The notes under the pieces are model-generated. The model did no database searches. It had not been told where the DNA came from and was given only the letters and a program-made list of their open reading frames with translations. Of a stretch of 64,000 bases of DNA, positions 4,232 through 57,819 are shown piece after piece (position 1 is the stretch's first letter; each line of letters begins with the position of its first letter). This DNA comes from a phage: the sequence record PX969468.1. One strand, given 5' to 3'. The position numbers and the translations under genes were made by a program.

Positions 4232-4918
4232 ATGGCAGAGATTAAGTCGGATGTCAACCACATCCACACTCTGCCAGATTTTGTTCAGGGAGGTCTTGAT
4301 TACCTGCCTGGGGATTTTCTGGCTGAGAAGGTTAATTTAGTCACATTCTTAACCGTGTACCTTAAAAGGTTGGAGAATGTTGATAAAATACTGGTAGGCT
4401 TGGCTGAAGGAAGATTGCTTAACAATGCCAGCGGGAGATACCTTGACGAAGTTGGTAATCAACTTGGTATCCTTAGGAATGGTCTTTCAGACGCGGATTT
4501 TCGTGCTACGCTGATTATTCAGCAGGCAGCATCATCAAGAGGTGGTACTCGCGAAGATGTCATCTCCACCTTACGACAGTTGTTCGGAAGAGATAATTTC
4601 GATACGTGGAAAGGTGACAATTTCAGGTTTGACATAAACATTAGAAAAACTTGCTTTGACATATTGCAGTCTATCGACCAGATCTTAGATATGCTGCCAT
4701 TGCCTTGTCATTTGCGTCTTACGGAATCGCAAGGGCAAGCTTTTGGTTTTGAAGGGGACTCTGCAGCTCTCGGCTTCGGATCAGTGTGGGAAGAAAACCA
4801 GTTCGGGGTTGGTGGGTTGGCTACTTTGTTATATGTTCCTGACGTAAGACCTGATTGGGACACCACAACTATTTATTGTGAAAGTATTACAGTAAACGCA
4901 ACTAGACAGGAGGGTTAA
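4232..4918 (+). CDS. Structural-module protein, function unknown
   Basis: 228-aa ORF, RBS GGCGGTGAG; stop overlaps next start (TAATG). Confidence 0.55.
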   Translation: MAEIKSDVNHIHTLPDFVQGGLDYLPGDFLAEKVNLVTFLTVYLKRLENVDKILVGLAEGRLLNNASGRYLDEVGNQLGILRNGLSDADFRATLIIQQAASSRGGTREDVISTLRQLFGRDNFDTWKGDNFRFDINIRKTCFDILQSIDQILDMLPLPCHLRLTESQGQAFGFEGDSAALGFGSVWEENQFGVGGLATLLYVPDVRPDWDTTTIYCESITVNATRQEG

Positions 4919-6990
4919 TGGCAATAGCTGTTTTTAAACCTTACCGTGATTACTCTACAATGGCTGCACGGTTTCATTACCGCACAGTTCAAGATACTGC
5001 AGTTCCAGGTAGGGATTATGATCATGTTGAGGGTGATATAACTATTCCGGTTGGGGCAACCAGTATTGAGATTCCTGTAGAAATTGTTGACAAATTGCCA
5101 AACAGGTTGCCAAGAAGCTTCTTTATGGAGTTTTCATCAAACTCCCAAGGGGTTATGATTGGAACACAAAGAGCGAAATGTACAATAGTTTCAGATGAGA
5201 ATCTTGACAGAATATCTTGGGATACCGTTGAGGAGAGAATGTTTCACCCAAGATACTGGGTTACAACCACACAGCAGACTGAAAGCACCTGTATTGTTGC
5301 GGATAATAACTGCTGTATTAACCGTTTAGTGTCAAGAACATATGGAGGCATGGCTGGGTGCATTTGGGAAACAGTTGACAAGTATGACCATTTCGGTATT
5401 GGATTTGATGATCACTACGAGATGAGAAACACCAAGCTTTGGTTCAGAATGTCAATAACCAATGCCAGCAACTTTTCCACCCCTGAAAAGATGATTATGA
5501 CTGTAGACCTTGTTGATGGTACAATCATCTATGTTCCTTTAGCTCAATATGCTGTCAGCATCTCAGAGGATAAGAATGTTGCAGAAATTCATATTGATTT
5601 CGAGGACTGCGTCGGGATGGACCAGAACAACAACATGATGGGTGTTGATCCTCGGCAGGTGAGAAGGATTCTAATACCACTTATGCCTAAAGATTGGGTA
5701 GGTAATAGCACAGACCCGAGAACGGAAAATGTAGAGTGTGAGCTGCGTCTAGATCTGCTTCAGCCGGACACAGGCTGGAAAATGATGCAACTTAACAATA
5801 TCCAGGTGAAAGAGCACGACGTCGGGATCTGCACAGCATATGACGATATGTGGAACGTATCCCCTTTAAGGGTGTTGAGCAATATCAAGCGCCTTGGCTA
5901 TACCGGAACCATAAATCATTATGTTGGTATGAGTCATTATTATGACTACACATGGTCAGGAACCCAATGGTCTATAAACAAAACAGGGGCTCTAAACGCT
6001 GCAGCTTATAAATGGCATGATGATTTTATGTACAATGCCAAACGACATGACTTCGACGTTATGCAGTCTGTAAGCTTTGAGCTTTATAGCGATGCCTGCC
6101 CGTTGGAATGGACCCAGAGAGACTGGAACGATAACTATGCTAAAACAGGCTATACGCCTTGTAGTTACCTCCTGTCTCCAACCATTGAAGAGGGTATGAA
6201 TTTCCTTACTGCGGTATTTAAGAATTTTGCATCAGCCGCTATGAGAAACAACCTGCCAGTGATTATGCAGATTGGTGAACCGTGGTGGTGGTTCAATACC
6301 GATACTCGTAAGCCTTGTATTTATGACTACCCTACAAAGCAGGCGTTTTATGATGAGACTGGTGAATATGCACTAGACATTGGGACTATTGACGATCCTA
6401 AAACTGGCGGTGTTTATGACAAGTATGTAGCATTTTGTCGTGGTAAGCTTGGCGCTCGTATTGCAGCCATTTCAAAGGCAATAAAAGCACACGCTGCATC
6501 GGCTCAGATGACAGCTTTACTGTTTTTCCCCACTATTATGGAAACCGAGCTTACGCAAAAACTGAACCTTGCTGACCAATATAAAAAGGAAGCAGGTGCT
6601 CTTGATTTCTTCTGCACTGAGTGCTACGATTGGGTGATGCAGGGAGGTATTGAAAAGGCAAAAGAGTCTGTAAACATACCTATCGTTAAGTTAGGTTGGA
6701 AACCGTCTGAAATACAATACCTTGCAGGGTTCGTTCCTAGCAAAGAGCTTGCTCCGGTATATGGCTACGACCCAACCAGGAATTACCAAGAATTTTTATG
6801 GAGATGTATTTGCGGAAACATGGCAACCATAGAGTATAGATACCCTGAGGTAAAACAGTATGTGTGGGCATACCCGCAAGTAATGTCTGACAGCATCACT
6901 GTTACCGCTAGAGATTCTACCGTGCTTCATATGGGGCAGGTTGCTCTGAAAGGGTATGTAGAAGATGTTGTCCCGCCAGACTTCTCATAA
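4918..6990 (+). CDS. Structural-module protein with N-terminal Calx-beta-like domain
   Basis: 690-aa ORF; N-terminus TVQDTAVPGRDYDHVEGDITIPVGATSIEIPVEIVDK fits Calx-beta pattern. Confidence 0.55.
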   Translation: MAIAVFKPYRDYSTMAARFHYRTVQDTAVPGRDYDHVEGDITIPVGATSIEIPVEIVDKLPNRLPRSFFMEFSSNSQGVMIGTQRAKCTIVSDENLDRISWDTVEERMFHPRYWVTTTQQTESTCIVADNNCCINRLVSRTYGGMAGCIWETVDKYDHFGIGFDDHYEMRNTKLWFRMSITNASNFSTPEKMIMTVDLVDGTIIYVPLAQYAVSISEDKNVAEIHIDFEDCVGMDQNNNMMGVDPRQVRRILIPLMPKDWVGNSTDPRTENVECELRLDLLQPDTGWKMMQLNNIQVKEHDVGICTAYDDMWNVSPLRVLSNIKRLGYTGTINHYVGMSHYYDYTWSGTQWSINKTGALNAAAYKWHDDFMYNAKRHDFDVMQSVSFELYSDACPLEWTQRDWNDNYAKTGYTPCSYLLSPTIEEGMNFLTAVFKNFASAAMRNNLPVIMQIGEPWWWFNTDTRKPCIYDYPTKQAFYDETGEYALDIGTIDDPKTGGVYDKYVAFCRGKLGARIAAISKAIKAHAASAQMTALLFFPTIMETELTQKLNLADQYKKEAGALDFFCTECYDWVMQGGIEKAKESVNIPIVKLGWKPSEIQYLAGFVPSKELAPVYGYDPTRNYQEFLWRCICGNMATIEYRYPEVKQYVWAYPQVMSDSITVTARDSTVLHMGQVALKGYVEDVVPPDFS

Positions 6991-7002
6991 TCAGGAGATA
7001 AA

Positions 7003-8043
7003 ATGTCAAAACCTAGTTTTCCATTAGAGATTTGGGCAGAGGAGGATCAGGTTCTGCCTAACACCCACAGACAGAACAGGCTACGCCCGATTGATGATTT
7101 GTGGAGAAAAGGTTGGGATCTTGGTCAAAAGCCCTCATGTGAAGAACTTAACTATATTTTCAATATGCTCGGAACTTGGGCAAAATACATTGCTGACGAG
7201 CAGATCCCCGCTCAAGAAGGCCGTTATCTGGTACGCGATAATAACTTGAGTGATCTTTTGAACATCCCTGTTGCCCGTAGAAACCTTGGGATTATTACTA
7301 AGGAAGAGGCAGACGCCAGGTATGTAAAAGTTACAGGTGATACAATGACAGGCCCATTGGGTTTGCAACGTATCAACTTTAAAGCTGCCGAGACAGACAG
7401 GGCTTGGATAGAGACAACTATTGGCCCAGATAAGACAACTCTCGACTTTGGGTTAAGTGATAATATTGGGTCGTTTGATGATGGTGGTACATCTACAGTA
7501 GATGCGTTTCGTTGGAGATTTCAGCCAACTCAGCCGGATATCAATCCGGAGTTCACTTTGATGTACCTTAACGCGATCACGGCTAACCGTGCGCTGTTGA
7601 AAGTGGTAGGCAATGTTGAAGTTGTCGATAACATGAGGTGCAATAACCTTACTATTAGCAATACAGCAACATTCACCAACTGTAATGTGGCTAGTCAGTT
7701 GACGGCTGGGTCAGTGTATGTTAATGGTGGTACAAGTTGTGACAGTATGGTTGTAAGAAGTCAGCACTGTGTTGTCGGTAACAGAAATGTGGTGCGCTCT
7801 GTAAATGGAGTGACGGCTAACGGTAACGGTGATGTAACAATCACTATCCCGCAGACAGGTGTGCAAGACATCAGAATCGGTGCAAGACTTGTTGACGGCG
7901 TTTCCGAATCTCCAATTCGCAACGGCTACGTTGTCACAGGCTGGCATTTCGGTGACAAAAAAGAGATGCGTGGTTCAACCTACTGGGCAGGACCTTTACA
8001 AAAACTTGTAAATGGTCAATGGATCACTGTTAATTATGCATAG
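7003..8043 (+). CDS. Tail fibre protein (receptor-binding, P2 gpH-like C-terminus)
   Basis: 346 aa; C-terminus LQKLVNGQWITVNYA resembles recalled P2 gpH end (IQKYINGTWYNV); RBS AGGAGA. Confidence 0.7.
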   Translation: MSKPSFPLEIWAEEDQVLPNTHRQNRLRPIDDLWRKGWDLGQKPSCEELNYIFNMLGTWAKYIADEQIPAQEGRYLVRDNNLSDLLNIPVARRNLGIITKEEADARYVKVTGDTMTGPLGLQRINFKAAETDRAWIETTIGPDKTTLDFGLSDNIGSFDDGGTSTVDAFRWRFQPTQPDINPEFTLMYLNAITANRALLKVVGNVEVVDNMRCNNLTISNTATFTNCNVASQLTAGSVYVNGGTSCDSMVVRSQHCVVGNRNVVRSVNGVTANGNGDVTITIPQTGVQDIRIGARLVDGVSESPIRNGYVVTGWHFGDKKEMRGSTYWAGPLQKLVNGQWITVNYA

Positions 8044-8057
8044 ATCGGAGGACTAGC

Positions 8058-8642
8058 ATGAAAATACTTCAAGAGTTTAAACTTTACCAACCGGGATCTG
8101 GCGAATACCACGCCAACAAGGAAACCAAAGAGCTGACCCCTCAAGAGGTTGAGGATTACACCGCATACACTGGGTATTTTTTACGTAATGATGATGGCGA
8201 TTGGTATGTGCAGTCACGAACATTACGACAAGAAAATCCGGGTTGTATCTTCCTACTTGTTGACGAGAAGGGAATTCTTAAGACATCTACAGAAGAGCCT
8301 GATGCCTTATGGCCTGCTCCAGGTCTTCGTGTGGTTATCGCCAAAAAAGAAGAGGTACCAGAAAACATTATGCTTCACCACGACGCTTTGCGTTTAGTTG
8401 GTGATGAATTTGTCACAGATAATGAATTCTTTGTTCAACAGGCAGAGGGTGTCATAGAGACAGAACTTGCTTGGGCTACTGCTAGAATTGGTGCCTATCA
8501 AGACATGATTGACCTTGAATATGATCTTACTGATGACCAGAAACGTAACATCAGAGATTTGAAAATGTACAGGGTAAAACTTCTTGAAATAGATACATCT
8601 AAAGCCCCTGACATTTTCTTCCCGGAGCGACCTACCCTCTAA
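8058..8642 (+). CDS. Tail fibre assembly chaperone (Tfa family)
   Basis: 194 aa; C-terminal LKMYRVKLLEIDTSKAPDIFFPERP matches Tfa signature (YR..L..ID.S.AP....P..P). Confidence 0.7.
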   Translation: MKILQEFKLYQPGSGEYHANKETKELTPQEVEDYTAYTGYFLRNDDGDWYVQSRTLRQENPGCIFLLVDEKGILKTSTEEPDALWPAPGLRVVIAKKEEVPENIMLHHDALRLVGDEFVTDNEFFVQQAEGVIETELAWATARIGAYQDMIDLEYDLTDDQKRNIRDLKMYRVKLLEIDTSKAPDIFFPERPTL

Positions 8643-8653
8643 GAGGAGGTGTT

Positions 8654-8968
8654 GTGGAGTTGGATTTGGCGGCATTGTACGGTATCTGCATGGGTACCGT
8701 TGTCCCGATCTGTGTATGGGCTTTCAACCAGTGGCACACCAAATGGAAAGGCATTTCCAAGAGGTTGGATGAACTGGAGAAAGACCTCATCTTAGTGAAA
8801 AACAGTATGGTTACAAAAGATAAACTTGATTCCGTTATCGAGACCCGGTTAAGCAAGCTAGAGGCCGATATTAACGACCTTAAGCAGGATGTCAGGACAG
8901 ATGTCTCCGGCATCCGAGCTGATGTACAAAAGATTTTGCACATGCTTGTAGAGCATAGTAAAAGGTAA
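8654..8968 (+). CDS. Small protein with hydrophobic N-terminus and coiled-coil C-terminus
   Basis: 104-aa ORF, GTG start 4 nt after AAGAGGAGG; start uncertain. Confidence 0.45.
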   Translation: MELDLAALYGICMGTVVPICVWAFNQWHTKWKGISKRLDELEKDLILVKNSMVTKDKLDSVIETRLSKLEADINDLKQDVRTDVSGIRADVQKILHMLVEHSKR

Positions 8969-8998
8969 ACAAAGGTCAGGACGGAAAGGACTCCGTTC

Positions 8999-9027
8999 TT
9001 GCATTTTGTTTCCTAAAGTGTTAAAAT
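8999..9027 (+). promoter_or_regulatory. sigma70-like promoter between the two fibre cassettes
   Basis: TTGCAT, 17-nt spacer, TAAAAT; upstream of AGGAGA RBS and ATG 9058. Confidence 0.55.
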
Positions 9028-9057
9028 AGTCCTAAGGAATTTTCTCAGGAGAACGTG

Positions 9058-10101
9058 ATGACTAAACCAGTTATCCCTCTTGATATTTGGGCCAATCAGG
9101 ATGTTGTGCTTGAAAATACGGGAGAATTGAATAAGTCTCAACCAAAAAAAGAAGAGAGATTGAAAGGTTGGGATATGACACAAAGAGTGGCATGTGAAGT
9201 TGTTAACTTTGAACTTCACATGCTTTCTGCGTGGTTAAAGCATTTAACAGAAGATGTTGTCCCAGGATGGGATAATAGATTCTTAAGGGTCACTAATAAT
9301 CTAGCAGACGTTCCAGACAAAGCTGCTGCACGTCAAGTTCTCAATGTATACTCGCCTGAAGAAATGGACGATCTGTATGTTGACAAGTCTGGAGACATAA
9401 TGACTCAGACTCAAACTTTAGGCCTTCAAAGAATCGAGTTTGCATCTGCGTCAACAGACAATGCGGCAATATATACCACCATAACCTCAGACAAGACGAT
9501 GATGGATTTCTGGATTATGGACAACATCGGTGGTGCTGACGGCACAGATCTTGATGATCCTTCTCACCAAATAGACGGGTTCCGTTGGAGATTTCAGCCT
9601 TCTGGTGGGCAGCCTGTGTTTTCGGCTATGAAGCTCAATGCTATAACTGCCAACCGTGCAAGACTGGCTATTCAAGGAAATCTTGAATGCAACGATGCAA
9701 AAAGTTCCTCTGCAAATGCCAATGCAGTTACTATACCAAGAGCCACTGTTAATGGTCAACAATCCTGTGGAAGCGCTCAAATAGGTGGAAGAGTTGATTG
9801 TAACGATGAAACCGTCAGGGGCCAATATGCAACAGTTGGTGGAAGAAACGTGGTCCGTAGGGTAAATGGTAACAGCGCAGACGGTAGTGGTAACCTTACT
9901 ATTCCTATGCCTAGTAGGGGTGTTGAAGATGTAAGGATAGCAAACCGTTTCAGAACCACCTACAGAGAATCAAGAGTATACCCTGGGCATGTAATGTGCT
10001 CCGGCAATTACGCCTATAAACACCCGTATCAGGGCGACTATTGGACTGGAGCCATTCAAAAATTTGTAAATGGTCAATGGATCACTATATCTTATGCTTA
10101 A
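9058..10101 (+). CDS. Tail fibre protein, paralog of 7003-8043
   Basis: Conserved N-terminus (P.IPLDIWA..D.VL.NT...KGWD) and C-terminus (IQKFVNGQWITISYA) shared with 7003-8043; central part divergent. Confidence 0.7.
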   Translation: MTKPVIPLDIWANQDVVLENTGELNKSQPKKEERLKGWDMTQRVACEVVNFELHMLSAWLKHLTEDVVPGWDNRFLRVTNNLADVPDKAAARQVLNVYSPEEMDDLYVDKSGDIMTQTQTLGLQRIEFASASTDNAAIYTTITSDKTMMDFWIMDNIGGADGTDLDDPSHQIDGFRWRFQPSGGQPVFSAMKLNAITANRARLAIQGNLECNDAKSSSANANAVTIPRATVNGQQSCGSAQIGGRVDCNDETVRGQYATVGGRNVVRRVNGNSADGSGNLTIPMPSRGVEDVRIANRFRTTYRESRVYPGHVMCSGNYAYKHPYQGDYWTGAIQKFVNGQWITISYA

Positions 10102-10112
10102 AAAGAGGGTAA

Positions 10113-10379
10113 ATGAAATTAACTCAGTTTTTATGGGGGTTGGTTGCAGCATCTGATGACCCTACGAAAGTGTCCCAATCTAAGCTATGGTCAAACATAG
10201 GCATGGCAGTGATGACTGGGGTGTTTATTCATATGGGGTACAATGATACGCTTCCTGAATGGTATGCGTGGATATATGCACCTTCAGTAGCCTGCCCCCA
10301 GCTTATTAGCAAATTCATCTCGCTCCGGTGGGGTTGCCAGCACCCTGACCACGTTAAAAACGAAGAGCAAAAAGCTTAA
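10113..10379 (+). CDS. Hypothetical protein (88 aa) downstream of second fibre
   Basis: ORF with hydrophobic stretch; position equivalent to a fibre accessory gene but no Tfa motif. Confidence 0.45.
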   Translation: MKLTQFLWGLVAASDDPTKVSQSKLWSNIGMAVMTGVFIHMGYNDTLPEWYAWIYAPSVACPQLISKFISLRWGCQHPDHVKNEEQKA

Positions 10380-10388
10380 GGAGAAATC

Positions 10389-12134
10389 ATGGCGCAAGAC
10401 ATGACAAGCTTCGAGCAGGCGGTAGATCAAGTAATTGTTGATTCTGAACGTTTGCACTTGATTGTCAACGGTAACGCTGTGGATGAAGTTGTCGTAGAGG
10501 ATGGGACCACCATCCCTACGGTACGAAAAGCCATGCTTGACACCCTTTATTTTAAAACGCCACCAATCCCTTGGGCGTATGGTGCATCCACAACAGTTTT
10601 TAACCAGTTGTATGAGTTTAAAGGGGATACAGGCACTCAGTGGTGGTATGCCCCAGCAGCATCAAAATCTAACCCGGTTAGGATGCCAGCAGATCCTTCA
10701 CAATCTCCGAACTGGAGATTATATACCGATTCTGCAGTAATGGCAAAATACTACGCAAAACTTAACAGTCCAAGGTTCGAAGGTGACCCGAGAGCACCTA
10801 CACCTCCAATGGACGATAAGTCCGAGTCTATAGCAAACACAGAGTTTGTTGTTGACTATGTGGATAGTATATTCAAAGCCATGGAGGGGATGAAAGTAAC
10901 TGTAGGGTCTTTGGTAGTAAAAGGTCTTACAGAACTGGCTAACACCATAGTTGGTGGCACCCTTACCATACACGGGCCTGTTAATGGAGCGGATTCTACT
11001 GCACGCTTCAGGAACCTAATCCTTACTGCAAATACTTCTACACTAACTTTTGCGTGGAGCGATCCTAAGCATGCCGACTGGAGAAGCACAGAGCTGCAAC
11101 CTCATGAAGTATCCACCCACAGAGTTATAGCCGACACTATAACCTCTGGGAAACCAGTGGCTAATAACAACGATGTGCATTTTGACGGTCTAGGTAATAA
11201 CTTTTTTGACTACGTGTACATTCGTGGTAATGCCATGAAGGCAGCAACCGAACCGACATTGCAGGTCGATGGGACCACTAGGGTTAAGAACCTTGAGGTG
11301 ACAGGTACCGTTACAGGGATAACCTACTCTGTCGATGGCACCATGATCTACCCTAGCTATATTGAAAGCACGGGTGACGCATTAATAAATGGTGATTTGG
11401 AGGTTGGCGGGTCTGTAGTTATTCGAGGTACGGCCTCTATCCAAAACATAGCTCTGAATACTCTCAGAGTCAATGAGCGTGCAACTTTTGAAGGAGAAGG
11501 GCTTACAGCCAACAAAGGTGTAATTACCGAGCTGACAACCACCACTTTAACTGCAACAACTGCAAACTCTGAAAACTGCAACGTTACCAGAAACTTGCAG
11601 GTAAATGGGGATGTTAGTTTAAACGCAGCAGGTACGGGCACCACCTACCTTCACAACCTTGAAATATCCGGCACAGTGACTGGTTGGCTGCCAGACTTCT
11701 CTAATGTCAACTTTGTCTGTAATGGTATTAACTCTAGTGGTAAGATAACCACCTCTCAAGAAATTGAGGCTGGTAAAACCATCACTGCCCCTACTTTCCA
11801 CGCAGGGAAGGTAGATTTCGATTTAGAGGAGGTTGACGCGTCCAGTGGGACATGGACACCTAACGGGCAGGCCAGTATGTATGTTGTCCACGCTAAAGGG
11901 GATTTTACAATAGGCCAATGGCCTGGAACATCGGCTGAAGATAAACCTTACCCGTTTACTGCAATCATCTATGTCATTCAAGATGCCGTAGGCCACAACG
12001 TGACTTTGCACGATAAATATGCCATACTGTCGGCTACCCCTGTTATTAACAACAAAGCCAACAGCGTCACCTTGCTACAATTGACATATTGTGGTGTTGG
12101 TGATATCGTAGATGTGGTTATTGCACAACGTTAA
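10389..12134 (+). CDS. Tail fibre protein
   Basis: 581 aa, Thr/Gly/Asn-rich beta-type repeats (LEVTGTVTGITYSVDG..), RBS AAGGAGA. Confidence 0.65.
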   Translation: MAQDMTSFEQAVDQVIVDSERLHLIVNGNAVDEVVVEDGTTIPTVRKAMLDTLYFKTPPIPWAYGASTTVFNQLYEFKGDTGTQWWYAPAASKSNPVRMPADPSQSPNWRLYTDSAVMAKYYAKLNSPRFEGDPRAPTPPMDDKSESIANTEFVVDYVDSIFKAMEGMKVTVGSLVVKGLTELANTIVGGTLTIHGPVNGADSTARFRNLILTANTSTLTFAWSDPKHADWRSTELQPHEVSTHRVIADTITSGKPVANNNDVHFDGLGNNFFDYVYIRGNAMKAATEPTLQVDGTTRVKNLEVTGTVTGITYSVDGTMIYPSYIESTGDALINGDLEVGGSVVIRGTASIQNIALNTLRVNERATFEGEGLTANKGVITELTTTTLTATTANSENCNVTRNLQVNGDVSLNAAGTGTTYLHNLEISGTVTGWLPDFSNVNFVCNGINSSGKITTSQEIEAGKTITAPTFHAGKVDFDLEEVDASSGTWTPNGQASMYVVHAKGDFTIGQWPGTSAEDKPYPFTAIIYVIQDAVGHNVTLHDKYAILSATPVINNKANSVTLLQLTYCGVGDIVDVVIAQR

Positions 12135-57438: not shown

Positions 57439-57475
57439 GATGGCCTTGACTTCAGGGCCATCGATAAAGTAAATT
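57439..57475 (+). promoter_or_regulatory. Palindrome-embedded promoter element, copy 3
   Basis: GATGGCC-TTGACTTCAG-GGCCATC then GATAAAGTAAATT. Confidence 0.6.
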
Positions 57476-57510
57476 TAAACCCTGTTAAAATACCACGCAG
57501 TTAACAAGGA

Positions 57511-57819
57511 GTGATAGACATGTTTATCCAGGCTAATAATCTTTATTTCTTTGATGGTCAGATCGTAGATGGTGTGGAAGTGGAGATCACCGGGTGCCCT
57601 GGCGGTCAGGCTATGACTTTTCGGAATAATGCCTTTGATGATTCTCATATCGTTATGAGAATGGAAGTTACGAAGCTGGACGACAAGAAAACACTTATTG
57701 ACTATTCTGTGAAAGATCATCCAGACTACCGCATGATCCATGGTGATTTGTGCATTGTTGACCGTGACAAGGTGGGCGGCATTGTGATCGCTATTGTGAA
57801 CGATGTTTTCTCAAACTAA
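57511..57819 (+). CDS. Early-region protein (102 aa)
   Basis: RBS AAGGAG. Confidence 0.5.
   Translation: MIDMFIQANNLYFFDGQIVDGVEVEITGCPGGQAMTFRNNAFDDSHIVMRMEVTKLDDKKTLIDYSVKDHPDYRMIHGDLCIVDRDKVGGIVIAIVNDVFSN

Follow-up and report, generated by a model that had tools for sequence, protein, structure and literature searches.

Phage Mu alternates between S/U and S'/U' through inversion of its G segment, and gp12 of T4 is a short tail fibre on the baseplate that attaches irreversibly to the LPS core. The LPS core is named as the receptor of Mu in that part of the Mu literature which is cited by Maffei et al. (PMC8594841). In the model of the phiTE short tail fibre (STF), residues 3–92 bind wedge 1 (PMC11972413), and fibre III of phi92 (gp147) is a Mu/Milano-like trimer attached beneath the wedge protein. 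For phage rV5, the paralogy of gp33 and gp30 (42–43%) was published in 2013 together with the idea of two LPS chemotypes, and an HHpred match of both proteins to 1PDI was reported (Kropinski et al., PMC3606486). Two paralogous short tail fibres and a chaperone homologous to GpS and GpU of Mu were described in 2021 (Maffei et al., PMC8594841).

The DNA analysed here is a stretch of 64,000 nucleotides (PX969468.1, in the following the window). The phage is a Vequintavirus, i.e., an rV5-like Escherichia coli phage with 97–98% DNA identity to rV5 and its relatives, and the genes in the region map one-to-one onto rV5 gp36–gp27. Compared to rV5, the orthologues of gp33 and gp30 differ in three and five amino acids, respectively. 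The window represents a further isolate of the genus, whose locus shows no substantive difference from that of rV5. Taken as a whole, the locus very probably is the module for short tail fibres in an rV5-like Vequintavirus, comprising two fibres of the Mu gpS type and a single tail fibre assembly protein (Tfa) of the Mu gpU/lambda type. Because the paralogues and the idea of two specificities have been published already, the finding adds little by itself and is largely ordinary. All features mentioned below are located on the plus strand, and the gene names of rV5 are used for the orthologues.

Two fibre genes are present, as stated in the preliminary description; they are intact open reading frames on one strand. 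Paralogue 1 (7003..8043, 346 amino acids) is the gp33 orthologue and the "canonical" copy with a Mu gpS-like shaft and tip. Paralogue 2 (9058..10101, 347 amino acids), the gp30 orthologue, has the same architecture with a divergent docking domain and tip; its ATG at 9058 is located 6 nt 3' of AGGAG (9047–9051). Both proteins matched the tail fibre family phrog_4465 (E 2e-171 for gp33 and 2e-165 for gp30). Aligned from end to end with BLASTP, the two proteins showed 43% identity (59% positives; E 3e-94), which confirms the earlier claim of two paralogous fibre genes of the receptor-binding type.

The N-terminal baseplate-attachment domain of paralogue 1 (amino acids 1–108, 7003..7326) is homologous to that N-terminal part of the phiTE STF which was modelled as binding the wedge (PDB 9cuy; phmmer against the PDB, E 1.5e-19). 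The N-terminus of gp30 matched the same structure with E 1.9e-8, and the family profile with E 5e-39. The homology to the phiTE fibre (9cuy/9mjn) covers the N-terminal 80–110 amino acids or so, the region modelled as bound to wedge protein 1, whereas the distal part of the phiTE fibre is different and contains a coiled coil and Ig domains. Shaft and C-terminal tip of both fibres are homologous to Mu gpS (structures with gpU: PDB 5yvq, 9ki1), and positions 75–353 of the family profile matched residues 150–503 of Mu S (E 2.5e-12). Unlike in Mu, the docking domain belongs to the phiTE/Vequintavirinae type. The paralogue 1 tip (amino acids 286–346, 7858..8040) runs colinear to the C-terminus of Mu gpS (residues 441–504; 36% identity, E 1e-6), as does the paralogue 2 tip (amino acids 286–347, 9913..10098) with 28% identity (E 0.003). 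AlphaFold2 models were calculated for monomers and had a low confidence (pLDDT 61 and 58); their use was limited to the order of the secondary-structure elements, which is the same in both, and to the sole significant Foldseek match, the Mu fibre with its chaperone (5yvq, E 8e-7 and 6e-6). Because of this low confidence, it is mainly the colinearity of the sequences that supports a common architecture, according to which each fibre appears to be composed of an N-terminus for wedge docking as in the phiTE STF, followed by a shaft and a Mu S-type C-terminal tip of about 60 amino acids. T4 gp12 is a functional analogue, which is folded with the aid of gp57A instead of a Tfa. No gp12 chain was among the PDB matches of phmmer (E≤1) or the family profile (E≤0.01), and the relation to this protein seems remote at best.

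Directly 3' of paralogue 1, a Tfa-type chaperone is encoded (8058..8642, gp32 orthologue, Mu gpU/lambda Tfa type), in agreement with the preliminary description and with the position of the Tfa gene in Mu. The protein matched PF02413 (E 8e-12) and phrog_136 (E 2e-36) and aligned with Mu gpU end to end. It is followed by the gene of a small membrane protein (8654..8968, gp31 orthologue, 104 amino acids) with an N-terminal transmembrane helix and a coiled coil, which corresponds to the protein m1 kept 3' of Tfa in single-fibre relatives. The gene directly 3' of paralogue 2 encodes the small membrane protein m3 (10113..10379, gp29 orthologue, 88 amino acids, phrog_1322) and is orthologous to m3 of the single-fibre relatives (52% identity). 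The small gene downstream of the second fibre is different from Tfa, as had been noted before, but it is not a partner specific to paralogue 2, since the single-fibre relatives carry it as well. Neither a second Tfa nor a Tfa remnant was detected near gp30 using tblastn and a Tfa profile on all six-frame open reading frames of the 64-kb window. The genes downstream of the two fibres, gp32 and gp29, are unrelated to each other; the fibre gene alone was duplicated, and the duplicated cassette proposed earlier has to be abandoned.

The copy number of the fibre is two in Vequintavirus (about 117 records with two matching places) and one in all other genera; phiTE and phi92 also contain a single copy. 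In rV5, Av-05, GAP31, BIS47, and PHB05, the STF gene is located upstream of Tfa and m1, directly 3' of the baseplate wedge genes. The gene order in Av-05, GAP31, and BIS47 is STF-Tfa-m1-m2-m3-fibre. Paralogue 2 is an extra copy between m1 and m3, where the relatives harbour m2, a membrane protein of 157 amino acids. A search for m2 elsewhere in the window returned only a spurious match (E 0.057). The codon-aligned nucleotide identity of the paralogues is 52% and the third-position identity at identical residues 43%; the duplication is therefore old. Repeats detectable at the DNA level between the fibre genes were restricted to a central segment of 28 nt (89%) and a direct repeat of 63 nt (79%; 7980..8042 with 10038–10100), which covers the last 21 codons of both genes and is the sole sizeable DNA-level trace of the duplication. 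The second copy probably originated within Vequintavirus by an ancient duplication and acquired its own late-type promoter. A duplication before the split of Vequintavirus and Avunavirus with subsequent loss in other lineages would still be compatible with the simple neighbour-joining trees. Overall, gp33 is nearer to the Av-05 fibre (47.6% identity) than to gp30 (42.7%), which would be explained either by a higher evolutionary rate of gp30 or by an earlier duplication. A Mu G-segment-type invertible or cassette-switching system was ruled out by the absence of significant inverted repeats (longest arm 18 nt) and the location of both genes on the plus strand. No invertase was found in the locus. 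Unlike the alternating Mu genes, the two fibre genes are co-expressed from one strand with one Tfa and lack flanking inverted repeats.

Both fibre copies are under strong purifying selection. The dN/dS values in comparison to rV5 were 0.06 for gp33 and 0.04 for gp30, and in comparison to the divergent relative L007, pN was 0.09 and 0.15, respectively, at a pS of about 0.8. Together with open reading frames that are intact in three diverged lineages, these dN/dS values rule out a pseudogene. Both fibres and Tfa were found in rV5 virions by proteomics (PMC3606486). Among 45 N-terminal docking positions conserved in 24 relatives, 42 are retained in the gp33 type and 23 in the gp30 type, which has lost nine positions fully and 13 partly. 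The gp30 type carries its own conserved substitutions in the docking domain (Q28, R43, and F51) in three lineages. The copies differ most systematically in the N-terminal baseplate-docking domain. In a literature search, no study was found that dissects the functions of the two paralogues.

The preliminary description, which speaks of a duplicated fibre cassette with swapped central domains and two receptor specificities, can be read as a duplication of fibre and chaperone together with a modular exchange of a central, receptor-determining domain. The presence of a small gene after each of the two fibre genes is in line with this, and the family is modular elsewhere: a phi92-like orthologue has both ends in common with gp33 and a different centre, the shared parts being only amino acids 1–76 (38%) and amino acids 287–343 of the tip (61%), and the similarity of many proteins in the databases is limited to the N-terminal 70 amino acids or to the repeat region at amino acids 71–122. 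Between the paralogues of the window, identity drops locally to 23% at about amino acids 205–240. However, the identity profile along the fibres (40% at amino acids 1–70, 43% at 71–130, 56% at 131–200, 38% at 201–265, 54% at 266–300, and 42% at 301–346) has its maximum in the centre and lacks a mosaic boundary. The similarity of the termini was described correctly, whereas the centre, which was thought to differ, is the best conserved part. In domain-wise neighbour-joining trees, the mid-region unites gp33 and gp30 with 94% bootstrap, the strongest pairing among the regions. The sliding identity profile, these trees, and the identical order of predicted secondary-structure elements rule out a central-domain swap; the copies have diverged along their entire length. 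Moreover, the downstream genes are not homologous, gp29 is kept in single-fibre phages, and the receptor-binding part of Mu-type fibres is the C-terminal tip instead of the centre (5yvq). Duplication of a whole cassette with central exchange is hence a highly improbable explanation of the locus.

A second receptor specificity, put forward as a putative idea by Kropinski et al. (2013), is plausible for the phage of the window, because the tips of its paralogues are only 44% identical. It is not a general property of the duplication, because L010, a divergent contig with two fibres, has tips (amino acids 301–346) that are 89% identical. The N-terminal domains of L010 have only 39–46% identity. 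This difference between tips and N-termini and the clustering of type-specific changes in the docking domain would also be expected if the duplication served redundancy or dosage, i.e., if it filled more or different baseplate positions (e.g., 12 fibres instead of six) without adding a specificity. In the BASEL study, no notable allelic variation was seen in either paralogue, and all tested Vequintavirinae required the same LPS core region (PMC8594841). We regard this explanation as rather doubtful, since the tips diverge in the window and the gp30 tip is kept in its own form (about 92% identity between the window and L007, estimated by eye in the alignment), which suggests a distinct, maintained binding surface. 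The eroded docking positions of the gp30 type might alternatively indicate that gp30 is no longer receptor-binding and acts as a structural connector of the fibre network, attached away from the wedge and bridging, for instance, to the gp28 or gp27 fibres. The gp30 gene adjoins gp28, a fibre of the phiTE_241 type, and the long fibre of phiTE touches the short fibre (PMC11972413). Such a role is unlikely, though, as the Mu S-type tip of gp30 is complete and still has the invariant motif at its C-terminus (Q334, N338, G339, and W341), and this tip is the best conserved part of gp30 between lineages, as expected for a ligand- or Tfa-binding end. A further reading, which we consider possible but less likely than not, is that what chiefly maintains the duplication is a division of labour between the baseplate-facing ends of the fibres, as opposed to a second specificity for receptors. 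The type-conserved docking domains would prevent mixed trimers, place the fibres at different baseplate sites, and double the short-fibre complement, while the Tfa-dependent tips would be interchangeable. In the lineage of L010, these tips seem to have been homogenised, for which gene conversion is a possible cause, whereas they diverged in the rV5 lineage.

For the assembly and function of the module, we propose that each paralogue forms homotrimers and that the single Tfa folds the tips of both fibres, because a second Tfa is absent. The N-terminal domains would dock on the baseplate wedges, and the tips would attach to the LPS core, acting as the terminal receptor, and contribute to the triggering of contraction. 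A dependence of the genus on the LPS core is known from BASEL and from LL12 genetics (PMC8594841). The location of the consistent difference between the two types in the N-terminal docking domain suggests that the types form no mixed trimers and/or that they dock in different ways. In the phage of the window, the differing tips may allow more types of LPS core to be recognised. Phages of the rV5 type are common, broad-host-range candidates for therapy and biocontrol, whose terminal-receptor step is poorly defined. For the engineering of host range, it is useful that both short fibres are functional, that one chaperone is probably common to them, and that their most consistent difference is the docking domain and not a swappable centre.

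The promoter assigned to the second fibre in the preliminary description is represented by a promoter-like site at about 8999..9027 (TTGCAT-17-TAAAAT with a TGt extended −10 element), which coincides with P030, a putative late promoter published for rV5. Both promoter blocks are invariant in rV5 and in the divergent relatives L007 and L010. A scan for the sigma-70 consensus did not list the site, whose −35 element matches at only three of six positions, so that the promoter is supported instead by its agreement with the published motif and by its conservation. A stem-loop between gp31 and gp30 (8967..9011, −17.7 kcal/mol, z −4.35) overlaps the −35 element. Its loop AAGGAC is conserved, the stem is altered in L007, and a U-rich tail follows. 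This structure may be a weak terminator or attenuator.

A total of 117 phage records match the region 6500-11000 with a nucleotide identity of 95-99%, among them Escherichia phage rV5 (V5, NC_011041), JES2013 and the O157 typing phages. Since the locus also corresponds gene for gene to the rV5 annotation, the window was assigned to a Vequintavirus. The orthologues are gp34 (4918-6990; a hypothetical protein in RefSeq, identified as structural by MS in the rV5 paper), the tail fibre protein gp33 (7003-8043), the tail fibre assembly protein (Tfa) gp32 (8058-8642), the membrane protein gp31 (8654-8968), the second tail fibre protein gp30 (9058-10101), the membrane protein gp29 (10113-10379) and a further tail fibre, gp28 (10389-12134). 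The gp34 homologue contains N4 gp65-type "non-contractile tail sheath protein" domains (PF23845 TIM barrel, E 7e-80; PF23844, E 9e-13; weak Calx-beta match). In the Vequintavirus and Avunavirus loci it separates the baseplate genes from the first short fibre, and no copy occurs in those of Seunavirus, Mydovirus and phi92-like phages. The gp28 homologue is a member of the phiTE_241-type fibre family; its orthologue in the two-fibre relative L007 is annotated with PF26208/PF26209, but neither was detected in gp28 of the window (Pfam scan, E ≤ 0.1). At least 16 GenBank records of the MG0656xx series, named "Campylobacter phage" (host C. jejuni), are ~97% identical to the rV5-like locus, which suggests mislabelled or contaminating Vequintavirus genomes.

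The two fibre proteins gp33 (346 aa) and gp30 (347 aa) align over their full length (BLASTP, 152/356 identities, 43%, E 3e-94), and each matches phrog_4465 (tail fibre) end to end; their paralogy is far above chance. The start of gp30 is likely ATG 9058, 6 nt downstream of AGGAG (9047-9051), whereas GTG 9055, the start chosen by the ORF lister, was rejected as too close to this motif. The similarity of the termini described earlier was recovered in the alignment, but the accompanying difference in the centre was not. In gp33 residue numbering, identity is 40% at residues 1-70, 43% at 71-130, peaks centrally with 56% at 131-200, falls to 38% at 201-265 (local minimum 23% at ~205-240) and is 54% at 266-300 and 42% at 301-346. 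In a neighbour-joining tree of the central region (aa 121-262), gp33, gp30 and the second copy of L010, a divergent two-fibre contig (Logan, SRR32732957), form a clade with 94% bootstrap, so that a duplication within the lineage is the simplest history. Neither the identity profile nor this clade supports a swapped central domain; the centre is not swapped and is not an obvious specificity determinant. The codon-aligned nucleotide identity is 52%, third positions at identical residues agree in only 43%, and DNA repeats are detectable only in a 63-nt 3' segment (79%) and a 28-nt central segment (89%). We interpret the pair as an old duplication that diverged throughout, not as a recent mosaic.

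As proposed in the preliminary description, the first fibre gene is followed by a Tfa-type chaperone gene (8058-8642; PF02413, E 8e-12; phrog_136, E 2e-36), whose product aligns with Mu gpU end to end. A second Tfa was not found in any six-frame ORF of the window using the Tfa profile and tblastn. The genes before and after gp30, gp31 and gp29, encode small membrane proteins. The gene order in single-fibre relatives, taken from Av-05 (Avunavirus), GAP31 (Seunavirus) and BIS47 (Mydovirus), is short tail fibre (STF), Tfa, m1 (104 aa), m2 (157 aa, polytopic), m3 (~88 aa) and a gp28-like fibre, where m1 to m3 are small membrane-protein genes; the phi92-like order is STF, Tfa, m1-like and colanidase. 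Because gp31 is orthologous to m1 (33% identity, E 1e-20) and gp29 to m3 (52% identity, E 2e-31) and the window has a single Tfa, only the fibre gene was duplicated and not a cassette. A counterpart of m2 was not found in the window and, judged by gene order, the second fibre gene takes its place. The small gene noted after the second fibre is indeed present, but it is not peculiar to that copy, as m3 also occurs in single-fibre relatives.

The m1/m2/m3 trio is conserved within the Vequintavirinae tail-fibre module (window 8654-8968 and 10113-10379; L003 5138-6201; L005 5150-6219), and m2 is missing in every case in which a second fibre is present. The m1 protein combines a TM helix with a coiled coil, and its phi92-like form weakly matches Rz-like spanin and "lipoprotein" PHROGs. 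With two hydrophobic segments and a charged C-terminus, m3 looks holin-like; its L010 homologue carries a repetitive acidic C-terminal extension of 40 aa.

The fibres resemble known tail fibres at both ends. Their N-terminal ~83-108 residues match the phiTE short tail fibre (9cuy/9mjn; gp33 E 1.5e-19, gp30 E 1.9e-8), in which residues 3-92 form the joint binding wedge protein 1 (PMC11972413). The tip of gp33 (aa 286-343) is similar to the C-terminal end of Mu gpS (BLASTP, 36% identity, E 1e-6), and the gp30 tip is colinear with the same segment at lower similarity (28% identity, E 0.003). A 25-sequence family profile detected 9cuy (E 5e-39) and Mu S residues 150-503 (E 2.5e-12). The AF2 monomer models of gp33 and gp30 were poor (pLDDT 61 and 58); at this low pLDDT, their secondary-structure elements follow the same order, and the single significant Foldseek match of each was the Mu fibre-chaperone complex (5yvq). 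The orthologous gp147 of phi92 was assigned by cryo-EM to "fibre III", a Mu/Milano-like fibre that attaches beneath the wedge protein (PMC13450770).

By tblastn, only the ~117 Vequintavirus records have two matching places per genome; in all others there is one. Within its first 120 residues, gp33 shares 50-60% identity with the single-copy fibres of other genera, but only 40% with gp30. Of 45 N-terminal columns conserved to ≥85% in 24 relatives, the gp33 type keeps 42 and the gp30 type 23; the latter fully departs at P19, R28, I30, W34, G41, K43, Y51, K100 and G117, and its own conserved residues Q28, R43 and F51 occur in all three lineages. In the neighbour-joining tree of the C-terminal region (aa 263-346), Av-05, the phi92-like fibre and the L010 copy cluster with gp33, and gp30 is the outlier. 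The N-terminal domains of the two L010 copies are 39-46% identical, whereas their tips are 89% identical (aa 301-346), with 80% nucleotide identity in the last 177 nt. The type-specific N-terminal columns and these near-identical tips indicate that the stable paralogue difference lies in the docking end, with the tip as the putatively exchangeable part. L010 2872-6013 represents a divergent two-fibre Vequintavirus-like lineage absent from the phage collection (best match 46%).

Both copies are functional. Their ORFs are intact and, compared with rV5, gp33 shows three amino-acid changes (dN/dS 0.06) and gp30 five (dN/dS 0.04), so neither is a pseudogene. Compared with the more distant L007, pN is 0.09 (gp33) and 0.15 (gp30) at a pS of ~0.8. 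The two-fibre arrangement is kept in L007, where the proteins of the locus are 77-90% identical, and in the much more divergent metagenomic L010 (43-75%), and gp30, gp32 and gp33 were detected in whole-virion proteomics of rV5 (PMC3606486).

Each paralogue would form homotrimers, with gp32 folding the tips of both, and the two fibre types might differ in docking or at least not form mixed trimers. Vequintavirinae require the part of the LPS core surrounding the first outer-core glucose (PMC8594841), and the two tips of this phage, at 44% identity, may differ in the LPS-core variants that they recognise. Phi92-like and Phapecoctavirus phages represent the single-copy state (PMC8594841). The fibre pair is real, was located correctly and is already known: Kropinski et al. 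(2013) reported 42.3% identity between gp30 and gp33 and a resemblance to T4 gp12 by HHpred, and Maffei et al. (2021) described two paralogous short tail fibres with a chaperone, homologous to Mu GpS/GpU. Two receptor specificities are likewise a published hypothesis; our literature search found no functional dissection of the two paralogues. The replacement of m2 by the second fibre copy, the divergence of the docking domain by type and the almost identical tips of a divergent lineage appear to be minor additions to earlier descriptions.

The 89-nt spacer 5' of gp30 contains TTGCAT (8999-9004) and, after 17 nt, TAAAAT (9022-9027) preceded by TGt. This site escaped the consensus scan because its −35 element matches at just 3/6 positions. 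The separate promoter ascribed to the second fibre gene coincides with the putative late promoter P030 (motif TggTAaAAtA; Kropinski et al., Table S4). Among rV5, L007 and L010, the spacer has diverged except for the blocks TTGCATTTT and TGyTAAAATA, which do not vary; promoter function is predicted and phylogenetically supported. A stable stem-loop between gp31 and gp30 (8967-9011; −17.7 kcal/mol, z −4.35) begins ahead of the −35 element and overlaps it. The loop sequence AAGGAC is conserved, and the L007 stem is altered with pairing kept; it may be a promoter-coupled attenuator or terminator. Further copies of the late-promoter-like motif TGKTAWAATA lie at 2688, after a strong terminator (2631-2652) and 5' of the gp36 homologue (baseplate wedge gene; region 2631-2697), and at 57483, after a hairpin and 5' of an ORF starting at 57521 (region 57440-57492).
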